The notes under the pieces: model-generated
The model's input: only the letters and a program-made list of their open reading frames with translations
What the model was told of the DNA's origin: nothing
Database searches by the model: none
Shown here: positions 10,165-18,030 of the stretch, piece after piece
Layout of the letters: every line of letters begins with the position of its first letter
How positions within the stretch are numbered: position 1 is the stretch's first letter
Position numbers and translations under genes: made by a program
Origin: Escherichia phage PhiR46_1
Sequence record: PV340565.1
Direction: 5' to 3' (one strand)
Length of the DNA stretch: 46,290 bases

Positions 10165-10417
10165 ACAAGTTATGTTCAGGAAACCGTCGAAGCCGGAATT
10201 AAGGTATTCGGGGGTAAGAAATGAATATGTTATCTGGTGTCCAACTTGTGGTTACAGGACACGACCAGATAGTAATAAGCAGTCTGTAATTGCCGATTGG
10301 TATTTATCAAATCAGCCAGGTAATAAGCATATAGAAAATCTTTGGATTAAGCGTTACTTGGAAATCAGAGAGGGTGCGACCGTGGTCGCACAAGAAAATG
10401 AAAATAACGCCATTTAA
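10097..10417 (+). CDS. Lar-like restriction-alleviation protein candidate (Cys-x-Cys ... Cys-x-x-Cys-Gly zinc-ribbon)
   Basis: CLC ... KPELRYSGVRNEYVIWCPTCG resembles Lar-family proteins. The ORF overlaps the upstream gene, so the start is uncertain. Confidence 0.4.
   Translation: MRRRSAVKSSNAIGQEVPFCLCKQVMFRKPSKPELRYSGVRNEYVIWCPTCGYRTRPDSNKQSVIADWYLSNQPGNKHIENLWIKRYLEIREGATVVAQENENNAI
10374..10391. promoter_or_regulatory. sopC-like centromere palindrome (copy 1) GTGCGACC-GT-GGTCGCAC
   Basis: Close relative of the F sopC inverted repeat TGGGACC-AC-GGTCCCA. Four copies in the window. Confidence 0.6.
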
Positions 10418-10601
10418 GCAGGGGCCGATGACGCATGATGAAGCAGAGCGTCTTTCAGATACTTATCGGCGGCGTGGTAAGAAAGTTCTGGTTGTTCGTT
10501 CTGATTTTTTAGGTGATGGATATTGCGTTTATGTTCATTTACCTGAATCAGAAAGAACACCAAAACCATCCAGAACATATCAACAGAAAATTTGGGTATA
10601 G
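10398..10601 (+). CDS. Hypothetical protein (about 67 aa)
   Basis: ORF track 10374..10601; an internal ATG at 10398 is the more likely start. Confidence 0.35.
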   Translation: MKITPFKQGPMTHDEAERLSDTYRRRGKKVLVVRSDFLGDGYCVYVHLPESERTPKPSRTYQQKIWV

Positions 10602-10624
10602 ATAAACGTTGAGGAGAATTATTC

Positions 10625-11224
10625 GTGACTAATCAGATTATTTACGACAGGAAACGGTCTGATGTAATGATTGACCTTGAAACAATGGGTACTAACACAT
10701 GTGCTCCAATTGTTTCTATCGGGGCAGTGTTTTTTTCTCCAGAAGGTGAGGAATTAGGTCCTACTTTTTATGTGCCAGTGAATCTCAGAAGCTCGATGTT
10801 GAATGGTGGTGTCGCCGATGGTGATACCATTTTATGGTGGTTGAAACAGAGCAAGGAAGCCAGAGCCGCAATTTGTACTAATGATGCCCTTGATATTAAG
10901 GATGCACTTTTTGAATTATCACACTTTATTACTTGCCATGCATGTAATTTAAAAAAATTGAAAGTATGGGGAAATGGAGCAACATTCGACAATGTAATTT
11001 TACGCGGTGCTTATGAGCGCGTTGGCTTAGCCTGTCCGTGGGAATATTTTAATGATCAGGATGTTCGAACAATCGTTAATCTTGGTCAGTTTATTGGTTT
11101 CAATCCTAAAAAAGATATGCCATTTGATGGTGAACGACACAATGCCCTGGCTGATGCTATTCATCAGGCTAAGTATGTATCCGCAATTTTCTCCCGTCTT
11201 GTAAAAGGGCAAGGAGAATCGTAA
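10625..11224 (+). CDS. DEDD-family 3'-5' exonuclease-like protein
   Basis: MIDLETMGT motif (Exo I-like D-x-E). Size and features are typical of phage-encoded DnaQ-like exonucleases. The annotated codon may be an upstream alternative start. Confidence 0.6.
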   Translation: MTNQIIYDRKRSDVMIDLETMGTNTCAPIVSIGAVFFSPEGEELGPTFYVPVNLRSSMLNGGVADGDTILWWLKQSKEARAAICTNDALDIKDALFELSHFITCHACNLKKLKVWGNGATFDNVILRGAYERVGLACPWEYFNDQDVRTIVNLGQFIGFNPKKDMPFDGERHNALADAIHQAKYVSAIFSRLVKGQGES

Positions 11225-11643
11225 TGGCAAAGGCTTTTACACCAGAACAGAGGGAAGAACTGAATAAACAAATTGTGGAACTCGTGCGCCTGAATGGACG
11301 AGGAACGGTTAGGCAACTTGCGGATGAAACTGGTATTAGCCGGTGTGCTGTTAGTCGTTTATCAAGAGAGCTTGCTGCCAGTGGTGATTTGTATATCTCT
11401 GGCTCCGGGATATTTCTGTCTGCACAAGCACGCAAGGACTGGCAAAACGCCCGTAAAAAACTATCAAGAGTAAAGCCGAAGACATCGGTAGTGGTTGATC
11501 CAGACCTTATCTGGTCATTACCTGACGGAGAAATACGTCGTTACGACAGGCGCTTGAACATGATTTGTCACGATTGCCGGAAAAGTGAAGTTATGCAGCG
11601 TGTGCTGGCTTTTTATCAGGGAAATTTACAGGAGGTGGCGTAG
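11224..11643 (+). CDS. Hypothetical protein with N-terminal HTH-like segment
   Basis: ORF track; RQLADETGISRCAVSRLSREL is HTH-like. Confidence 0.45.
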   Translation: MAKAFTPEQREELNKQIVELVRLNGRGTVRQLADETGISRCAVSRLSRELAASGDLYISGSGIFLSAQARKDWQNARKKLSRVKPKTSVVVDPDLIWSLPDGEIRRYDRRLNMICHDCRKSEVMQRVLAFYQGNLQEVA

Positions 11644-11933
11644 TGAATATCGACACCACGATAACGATCGATACGGCCCTAAATATCGGTCTGGCACTTC
11701 TCGGTTGGTTTTACATCATGTTCAGTGCGGGGAAGTGGGCGGCCTCTGTTTTTCTAAAGCAGTGGGGAAAGCACCGCAAACAGGAAAGACGCCAGAAAGT
11801 GTTAGAGGCGTTCTATGACGCATTTGAACTTAGCCGCATTGAGCCAGGCACAACAGCCAAGATAGCGACAAAAGGCGACCTGATGATAGTGATGTTCCGA
11901 CAGGAGAGAGCAGATAAAGGGGAATCAGCATGA
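11643..11933 (+). CDS. Hypothetical small membrane protein
   Basis: ORF track; hydrophobic N-terminus LNIGLALLGWFYIMF. Confidence 0.4.
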   Translation: MNIDTTITIDTALNIGLALLGWFYIMFSAGKWAASVFLKQWGKHRKQERRQKVLEAFYDAFELSRIEPGTTAKIATKGDLMIVMFRQERADKGESA

Positions 11934-12589
11934 AATTTTCCAAATTTTCTGAGTTGGTGAATCGTATTTTGTCCAACAACCACAGCCATCGTCGCGATAT
12001 GGATGTAACAATCGTTATTCATTCGCCTGGCAGCATTGGTTCAACACCCTCAGTTGAGGTTCAGTCAATTCACGCTGGTTTTGATTGGGATTCCGGGAAA
12101 GTGCTGATTTTCCCAGCACAGCCACTGACCACGCTAACACCAGAACAGATTACTGATATTACTGATAGTGTGCGCAAAGGTCAGTCCTGGCACGCATATC
12201 AGGAATACAAGAAGCATAAAGAGCAGTTGGAAAAATTGTCGATTGAACTGGATGCTGCAAAACAGCGCGTAGCAGAACTGGAAGCCAAACCTGTAAGCCA
12301 AACTTACAAGTTAACTTTTGAGCAATGGCTGGAACAGCAGCATGACAAAATTGATGTTGATTGTGGATGTGTAAGTACTGAAATGTTTATGCACTGGATA
12401 AGGGTCGCGTATGAGGCTGGCAACTCTCCGGTAACTCCGGATGGTCATGTTCAGTTTTCTGTTTCACTTCCTGCAGCGTTTGGTGGAGATAAATATTTTA
12501 TTGATGGTGTATTTCAACCTTTGAGATATGAGCGTGACTGTGAAAGGGCGGTTGTGGCCGCTGGCGGTGTAGTTAGTTGGGTTAAGTAA
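11930..12589 (+). CDS. Hypothetical protein (219 aa)
   Basis: ORF track; overlaps neighbouring genes by 4 nt, which suggests an operon. Confidence 0.5.
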   Translation: MKFSKFSELVNRILSNNHSHRRDMDVTIVIHSPGSIGSTPSVEVQSIHAGFDWDSGKVLIFPAQPLTTLTPEQITDITDSVRKGQSWHAYQEYKKHKEQLEKLSIELDAAKQRVAELEAKPVSQTYKLTFEQWLEQQHDKIDVDCGCVSTEMFMHWIRVAYEAGNSPVTPDGHVQFSVSLPAAFGGDKYFIDGVFQPLRYERDCERAVVAAGGVVSWVK

Positions 12590-12604
12590 TTTTCAGGAGG
12601 ATTT

Positions 12605-12931
12605 ATGGCGCTGACACCGGCAGAACGGCAAAGGAGACGCAGGGAACGGTTGAAGAAGGAAGGCACATCAAGACGGGACTGGATTCTAGAACCTGACGAG
12701 TTACGTATGTTGGGGGAAATTTGTGTATTGCGTAGACCAGGGCGAGTTCCATATTCGGAGAACGAAGTCATTGGTTTGCTGATCAGGAAAAACTATAAGG
12801 AGCTGCAGAAGCAGCTATCTACTACTTGCCCGCGATGTGGTCAAAAAATGCCTGTTTCAGAATGCATTTTTGATGGCGAAGGGTCATGCCACCTTACAAC
12901 CACGAGGCTGAAACTTGCGCTCAAAGTGTGA
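12605..12931 (+). CDS. Hypothetical protein (108 aa), basic N-terminus, C-x-x-C pair
   Basis: ORF track; GGAGG ribosome-binding site. Confidence 0.45.
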   Translation: MALTPAERQRRRRERLKKEGTSRRDWILEPDELRMLGEICVLRRPGRVPYSENEVIGLLIRKNYKELQKQLSTTCPRCGQKMPVSECIFDGEGSCHLTTTRLKLALKV

Positions 12932-17420: not shown

Positions 17421-17461
17421 TCCCTCTGTATCAAAAACGAACTCAATTTGTTGGATAGTGA

Positions 17462-17773
17462 ATGAAAATTTATATTGCCGGGCCAATGACTGGATATGAG
17501 AACTTTAATCGTGACGCCTTTAATAAAGAGGCAGATCGTTTGTCACGACATGGTCACTCTGTCTTGAATCCAGCCACTTTGCCTAATGGTCTGACACAAC
17601 GTGAATACATGGATATTTGCTTTGCAATGCTTCGTTGTGCTGATGCTATTTTGATGCTTCCTGGCTGGAAAGCGTCTGCTGGAGCAACTGCTGAGTATCA
17701 TTACGCATACAAGATGGAGATGCCGGTATTCACTACGCTGAATTACCCGCCAGCTTGTTCCTCTGTAGCATAA
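17462..17773 (+). CDS. DUF4406-like / nucleoside 2-deoxyribosyltransferase-like protein
   Basis: MKIYIAGPMTGYENFNRDAF signature recalled from DUF4406 proteins. Confidence 0.55.
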   Translation: MKIYIAGPMTGYENFNRDAFNKEADRLSRHGHSVLNPATLPNGLTQREYMDICFAMLRCADAILMLPGWKASAGATAEYHYAYKMEMPVFTTLNYPPACSSVA

Positions 17774-17792
17774 AAATCTCTTTGTTTCTCGT

Positions 17793-17810
17793 GTGCGACC
17801 GTGGTCGCAC
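17793..17810. promoter_or_regulatory. sopC-like centromere palindrome (copy 3)
   Basis: GTGCGACC-GT-GGTCGCAC, immediately left of direct-repeat copy A. Confidence 0.6.
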
Positions 17811-17820
17811 ATTAAATACC

Positions 17821-17996
17821 GCGCTGCATCGTCGCCGTATTTCCGCATTAACCATGACCGTAGCCCGACGGGGAACTCCTCTGCGCGAGTGTGCGGAAAT
17901 AATCAAAAACGATGCACACCGGGTTTTTACCGCGCTAATGATTCGCGGGTTTGTCCCTCATGCTCGCCAGTCCTGTGCGAGGGTGGAAGAAACAGG
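17821..17996. repeat. Direct repeat copy A (about 175 bp)
   Basis: Nearly identical over roughly the first 110 bp to 19604-19780, then diverging (GCGCTGCATCGTCGCCGTATTTCCGCATTAACCATGACCGTAGCCCGACGGGGAA...). Confidence 0.8.
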
Positions 17997-18012
17997 GCAT
18001 GTATTCAGGAGC

Positions 18013-18030
18013 GTGCGACCGTGGTCGCAC
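18013..18030. promoter_or_regulatory. sopC-like centromere palindrome (copy 4)
   Basis: GTGCGACC-GT-GGTCGCAC, immediately right of repeat copy A and 24 bp upstream of the cassette gene. Confidence 0.6.

Follow-up and report, generated by a model that had tools for sequence, protein, structure and literature searches.

The DNA of Escherichia phage PhiR46_1 (sequence record PV340565.1), a stretch of 46,290 nucleotides that was analysed over its full length and is referred to here as the window, carries the same short palindrome at widely separated places, and the question that this raises is what these copies do and how they came to lie where they are found. Judged on their sequence, five palindromes sharing the core TGCGACC-RY-GGTCGCA very probably serve an N15-type linear phage-plasmid as its dispersed centromere, to which the partition protein SopB would bind; sites of this kind belong to the F Sop subfamily of type Ia ParABS systems. 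A preliminary description of this DNA had proposed the same type of dispersed centromere in the same type of linear plasmid, and this reading is borne out by the arms, which are those of N15 sites IR1–IR4 and of the phiKO2 sites, by the orthologous positions of the copies, and by the presence of cognate sopA and sopB genes, a protelomerase and telomere palindromes in the same replicon.

The exact 18-mer GTGCGACCNNGGTCGCAC, in which the arms GTGCGACC-NN-GGTCGCAC enclose a central dinucleotide, is found at 10374, 14753, 17793 and 18013, the four places at which it had already been listed, and none of 100 dinucleotide-preserving shuffles contained a match. A scan allowing up to three mismatches yielded a single additional site, at 7931 (GTGCGACCACGGTCGCAT) inside repA, and no further near matches in the window; this site departs from the 18-mer at its last base, and its 16-bp core (7932–7947, TGCGACC-AC-GGTCGCA) is perfect. 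The total of four given in the preliminary description therefore overlooked one copy: the window has five perfect 16-bp cores of the form TGCGACC-NN-GGTCGCA, a count equalled in none of 100 shuffles. Successive sites are separated by 2443, 4379, 3040 and 220 bp, a dispersed, non-tandem layout extending over 10 kb and lying 25–36 kb away from sopB. The centre is GT at 10374, 17793 and 18013, and AC at 14753 and 7931, so all five sites have a purine–pyrimidine centre.

The inverted-repeat (IR) sites of N15 were reportedly described by Ravin and Lane in 1999 and by Grigoriev and Lobocka in 2001, and in N15 a single site is said to bind SopB and to stabilise a plasmid when SopAB is present. The natural centromere sites IR1–IR4 of N15 have the arms GTGCGACC/GGTCGCAC and the centres AC, TC, AT and AC (oligonucleotide table, PMC7205306), and N15 SopB assembles into foci on a four-repeat array of them (‘4xIR’), whereas F SopB does not function with these sites (PMC7205306). 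In the N15 genome, IR1 (33479) lies within gene 37 (repA) and IR2 (35930) follows gene 40 (Q); IR3 (41124) precedes the annotated late -35 by 20 bp, and IR4 (45561) is located past genes 57 and 58. In pairwise alignments, window sites 7931, 10374 and 14753 fall exactly on IR1, IR2 and IR3, respectively; only about half of the approximately 50 nt upstream of IR3 are identical in the window and N15, yet 16 of 16 arm positions agree. For N15 IR1 (33479–33496), the genome record reads GAGCGACCACGGTCGCAC and the oligonucleotide of PMC7205306 reads GTGCGACCACGGTCGCAC.

The GenBank record of phiKO2, a phage of Klebsiella oxytoca, contains four 18-mers identical to window sites, including the IR1 variant ending in T, each annotated as a ‘putative plasmid partitioning site’; the first is located in the replicase gene, the second follows Q, the third precedes the late promoter and the fourth comes after gp58 (nucleoside 2-deoxyribosyltransferase), the same four positions as in the window. 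The window DUF4406 protein is 85% identical to phiKO2 gp58, which directly precedes the fourth phiKO2 site, and the adjoining site at 17793 can for this reason be equated with the canonical IR4. The window thus resembles N15 in its arms, its dispersed layout, the matching positions of its sites (one in repA, one downstream of Q, one upstream of the late promoter and one following genes 57–58) and its nature as a linear prophage replicon with a protelomerase. It differs from N15 in having five sites rather than four, of which the additional site is found 220 bp from IR4, beyond a lambdoid segment, in its centres, which are all AC/GT where those of N15 are more varied, in the IR1 16-bp core, which is perfect here but has a mismatch in the N15 GenBank record, and in the lack of a gene 58 or gene 59 homologue around IR4. 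phiKO2, by comparison with the window, has neither the doublet formed by the sites at 17793 and 18013 nor the lambdoid segment, and all its centres are AC on the phage map strand.

The F plasmid provides the second comparison. The F SopB binding site is TGGGACC-AC-GGTCCCA (the 16-mer TGGGACCACGGTCCCA), and this consensus is found at none of the window sites, each of which has two mismatches to it, a G to C change at position 3 of each arm. The preliminary description was right to call the palindromes sopC-like, but the difference amounts to one of the seven positions in each arm (2 of 14 overall) and not to two of seven. Within their arms, the natural sites of F sopC vary most at position 3, which is dispensable for specificity and required solely for optimal binding. 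F SopB requires a purine–pyrimidine centre, and such a centre was found at 157 of 160 exact sites (98%, against 25% expected by chance) in a survey covering 120 viral-contig stretches, with AC/GT at 148 sites, AT at six and GC at three. The window and F sites share the 7-2-7 architecture, this centre and a homologous SopB with a helix-turn-helix; the likeness does not extend to the layout, because F has 12 tandem 43-bp repeats beside sopB, whereas the window sites are single, kilobases apart, and form no tandem array of this type adjoining sopB. In the scattering of single 16-bp palindromes, each nucleating a ParB complex, the arrangement recalls chromosomal parS sites such as those of Bacillus subtilis Spo0J/ParB, although these belong to another ParB subfamily, have a TGTTNCACGTGAAACA-type consensus and are carried by a chromosome rather than a phage-plasmid. 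The use of AC versus GT as an orientation signal was considered and rejected: the preliminary description had correctly counted one AC and three GT centres at its four sites, but the two dinucleotides are reverse complements, the IR2 orthologue, read in the window orientation, is split between AC (10 relatives) and GT (13), and the IR4 centre is AC in N15 and phiKO2 but GT in the window.

The proteins match the sites. Window SopA is 93% identical to N15 SopA, and window SopB is 74% identical to N15 SopB and 75% identical to phiKO2 SopB. Window SopB aligns with the crystal structures of F SopB and has the SoPB_HTH domain (PF18090, E = 1.6e-23). The specificity determinants of F SopB are R190, K191, R195 and R219; of these, the DNA-contacting R190, R195 and R219 are retained in the window protein, and K191 is replaced by N in both the window and N15, a replacement that would, by inference from the sequences, fit the single arm difference (C rather than G at position 3) from the F site. 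A SopB homologue is encoded in at least 13 of the viral contigs carrying exact sites. By homology with N15 and F, the window sites would be expected to bind SopB, to act in partition and to affect late-gene expression. A SopB dimer would bind each palindrome with one helix-turn-helix per arm and would nucleate a larger SopB–DNA partition complex; such complexes would stimulate the SopA ATPase, and the low-copy linear prophage would be segregated to both daughter cells.

Two of the sites, 10374 downstream of Q and 14753 upstream of the late promoter, occupy the IR2 and IR3 positions of N15; the distance from IR3 to the -35 element is 19–20 bp in the window, N15 and phiKO2. The intrinsic terminator at 14855–14875 would, by analogy with N15 and lambda, be the target of Q antitermination. 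In N15, Ravin, Rech and Lane reportedly linked the SopB sites in 2008 to a facilitation of late expression: the two sites are said to enhance Q-dependent late transcription during lytic growth, mutation of either to delay lysis, and IR3 to raise the activity of the late promoter in the presence of Q, IR2 and SopAB. The preliminary description had suggested that SopB bound beside the late promoter and terminator might couple partition to late-gene silencing; the location holds, but the direction reported for N15 is activation and not silencing. The coordinates of the sites and of the surrounding features are given in Table 1.

Table 1. Putative SopB sites and other features of the window, in order of position
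Feature	Position	Strand	Basis or remark
Telomere palindrome	1..38, inverted copy 46253-46290	.	Sequence identity of ends
telN protelomerase	203..2104	+	Open reading frame
repA replicase	4314..8309	-	Hosts IR1
IR1-type putative SopB site	7931..7948	.	Inside repA; aligns with N15 IR1; identical to phiKO2 replicase-gene site
cB	8555-9151	-	Gene order
cro / Q	9216-10164	+	Gene order
Q-like antiterminator	9454..10164	+	YDC107_1 annotation; N15 gene 40
IR2-type putative SopB site	10374..10391	.	209 nt downstream of Q; aligns with N15 IR2; phiKO2 site at same place
IR3-type putative SopB site	14753..14770	.	5 bp after gp51-like open reading frame, 19 bp before late-promoter -35; aligns with N15 IR3
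Late promoter-like TTGGCA-17-TATTGT	14790..14818	+	Homologous to annotated N15 late promoter
Intrinsic terminator downstream of late promoter	14855..14875	+	Homologous to annotated N15 element
Lysis genes	16187-17420	+	Gene order
DUF4406 (nucleoside 2-deoxyribosyltransferase-like)	17462..17773	+	Homologue of N15 gene 57 and phiKO2 gp58; marks canonical IR4 position
IR4a, canonical fourth site (putative)	17793..17810	.	19 bp after DUF4406 gene
~187-bp segment, copy 1	17821..18007	+	Flanked by IR4a and IR4b; in lambdoid phages between lysis genes and cos
IR4b, additional site (putative)	18013..18030	.	Directly after segment copy 1; 23 bp before ATG of open reading frame 18054-18914
~187-bp segment, copy 2	19604..19791	+	~55 bp upstream of cos; no adjoining palindrome
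cos	near 19846		Gene order
Terminase	20035-22480	+	Gene order
sopB, 329 aa	43667..44656	-	SoPB_HTH, Pfam PF18090, E = 1.6e-23
sopA partition ATPase, 389 aa	44653..45822	-	93% identical to N15 SopA

The closest relative of the window is Escherichia phage YDC107_1 (genus Ravinvirus), at 99.4% identity; N15 and phiKO2 are related to it as well. The same 38 nt, including a 22-bp palindrome (CCATTATACGCGCGTATAATGG), stand in inverted orientation at its two ends, which identifies the window as a whole N15-type linear plasmid prophage. Each end has the complete 22-bp palindrome rather than half of it, so the record extends beyond each hairpin tip by about 11 nt. In the YDC107_1 record (CP025712.1), the telN–repA arm is present twice, inverted (28021–36551 versus 37493–46299), neither sopA nor sopB is listed and the tail genes are present only in part; this record looks like an assembly read-through of the hairpin telomere.

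The extra site, at 18013, raises the question of origin. The sites at 17793 and 18013 flank a segment of about 187 bp, the repeat copy that the preliminary description had correctly seen to be bracketed by palindromes, and a second copy lies just upstream of cos. In hundreds of lambdoid phages, this segment is a conserved stretch separating the lysis genes from cos. An open reading frame (ORF) analysis of five copies revealed no consistent coding frame, because a 1-bp indel shifts every long frame, and folding of the segment as RNA on both strands was no better than that of shuffled sequences (z = -0.78 and -0.16). An Rfam scan of 7000–20500 at a permissive E-value gave four sub-threshold chance matches, none of them at the palindromes or the repeat. 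The commonest arrangement among related contigs is Rz – segment – palindrome – cos, whereas the window has the order Rz – DUF4406 – IR4a – segment – IR4b – two unrelated ORFs (18054–19487) – segment – cos. These two ORFs, of 286 aa and about 149 aa, occupy a low-GC stretch between the segment copies and look like inserted cargo; the shorter is apparently membrane-associated, and neither has a Pfam family or similarity to N15 gp59. The part of the window from 16466 to 18031 matches lambdoid phages at about 93%, and IR4b is best seen as having come with a lambdoid-type lysis-to-cos module.

The 220-bp doublet is also found in YDC107_1, in four viral contigs and in 26 of 5426 complete E. coli genomes, in many cases on plasmid records of about 46 kb. 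The doublet region (DUF4406, IR4a, segment and IR4b) is present in addition on E. coli records of about 5 Mb labelled ‘chromosome’ (H118, H119, H122, H125 and H130–H136), which may reflect integration of the linear plasmid or errors in its assembly. In two related stretches, L012 and L107, a third palindrome lies next to cos; the three palindromes (at 10743, 12429 and 12649 in L012, and at 1328, 2995 and 3215 in L107) are contained within 1.9 kb, each at a module junction, the modules being the DUF4406 gene, the segment, the cargo ORFs and cos. This hints that these sites may mark or mediate module exchange, and, given the order gp57 / IR / segment / IR / cargo / IR / cos of some relatives, palindromes at module junctions might, on a rather improbable reading, serve as short recombination linkers.

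The arrangement of segment, palindrome, about 55 bp and cos also exists outside phage-plasmids. It was found in about 155 complete E. coli genomes, almost all of the copies being on chromosomes. In the chromosome of E. coli M18 (NZ_CP010219; L131 20068–20085), a defective lambdoid prophage with an integrase and an excisionase, located next to mdtA, has an exact palindrome (GTGCGACCGTGGTCGCAC) some 55 bp upstream of its cos; no sop genes were found around it in the 40 kb examined. An exact palindrome lies beside cos in L010 (1607–1624) likewise. Other chromosomal prophages (L132, L133 and L134) have asymmetric, decayed versions, GTGTGACTGTGGTCGCAA and GTGCGACCGTGGCCGCAC among them, and at the right end of phage 2B8 (L003 2699–2716) the sequence is GTGCAACCGTGGTTGCAC, in which a G>A / C>T double change, being symmetric, leaves the palindrome intact. 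In these elements, the conservation of the palindrome does not exceed that of the flank downstream of it, which suggests, from few examples, that it is not under selection where SopB is lacking. A second class of SopB specificity, based on the 2B8 variant GTGCAACCNNGGTTGCAC, was considered and rejected, as a scan of the viral contigs gave only seven single-copy matches.

It is possible, if somewhat doubtful, that the site at 18013, and perhaps the whole doublet, is a passenger of lysis-to-cos exchange that adds nothing to partition. Such an origin would agree with how common the segment–palindrome–cos module is, with its presence in the lambdoid phage 2B8 and in prophages of bacterial chromosomes, one of which has an exact palindrome and others decayed ones, with the close lambdoid match of 16466–18031, and with the unrelated low-GC ORFs inserted between the segment copies. 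Against it, both window sites are perfect, and the doublet is unchanged in all the contigs, genomes and the phage in which it was found; moreover, IR4b being perfect and SopB present, it should be bound like the other sites. The passenger explanation concerns origin, and is compatible with a centromere function. A broader proposal, that the palindrome belongs to a mobile module near cos that passes between phage-plasmids and integrating lambdoid phages, with cross-talk through SopB, seems improbable; if it were true, SopB made by a resident N15-like plasmid could attach, immediately beside cos, to the DNA of lambdoid phages or prophages, and co-resident elements would affect one another in DNA positioning, late transcription or packaging.

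The idea that the palindromes are RNA or DNA hairpins (terminators or attenuators) rather than protein-binding centromere sites is more improbable still. It draws on the annotation of N15 IR4 as a putative rho-independent terminator and on the recovery of the site at 18013 by a terminator-like scan, and the symmetric double substitution in 2B8 would preserve a hairpin. But the combination of a GC-rich hairpin, a loop of 3–8 nt and a T-run that characterises rho-independent terminators was found at none of the five sites; 18013 alone was listed, with a weak tail (GTATCTTTGT), so that a T-rich-like tail is present at only one site of five, and a perfect 8+8 palindrome with a 2-nt centre would make a strained loop. 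One site is inside the repA coding sequence, on the strand opposite to transcription, and the sequence is invariant in four unrelated genomic contexts, which is a better fit to one sequence-specific protein, as are the foci formed by N15 SopB on these repeats (PMC7205306). The variant GTGCAACC..GGTTGCAC, moreover, is rare and never multi-copy (seven single matches). Operators of another dimeric regulator, or sites of a phage DNA methyltransferase, unrelated to SopB, are scarcely credible, despite the DNA methylase gene directly downstream of 14753 and several small helix-turn-helix proteins in the window, given that the site is one base per arm from the structurally characterised F SopB site under the same purine–pyrimidine centre rule, is identical to sites on which N15 SopB forms foci (PMC7205306) and co-occurs with SopB homologues across contigs.

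Several observations weigh against reading the palindromes as a dispersed N15-type centromere. The case for the window element is built on homology throughout. The integrase-bearing lambdoid prophage remnant of M18 has an exact palindrome adjoining cos and no sop genes in its 40-kb neighbourhood, so the palindrome alone is no proof of centromere function. The site at 18013, in particular, could be a passenger, and it is also the one that fits a weak terminator-like pattern; N15 IR4, too, is annotated as a putative terminator.

Dispersed SopB sites are well-known biology, and the window is a further case of them, with a fifth site and a doublet. Its value is largely one of annotation: five previously unannotated putative centromere sites can be labelled in a widespread family of E. 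coli linear phage-plasmids, and the purine–pyrimidine centre rule of F SopB extends across N15-type sites. The fifth site is mildly new, as is its tie to a segment common to lambdoid phages, and this tie documents lysis-to-cos exchange between plasmid prophages and integrated prophages.

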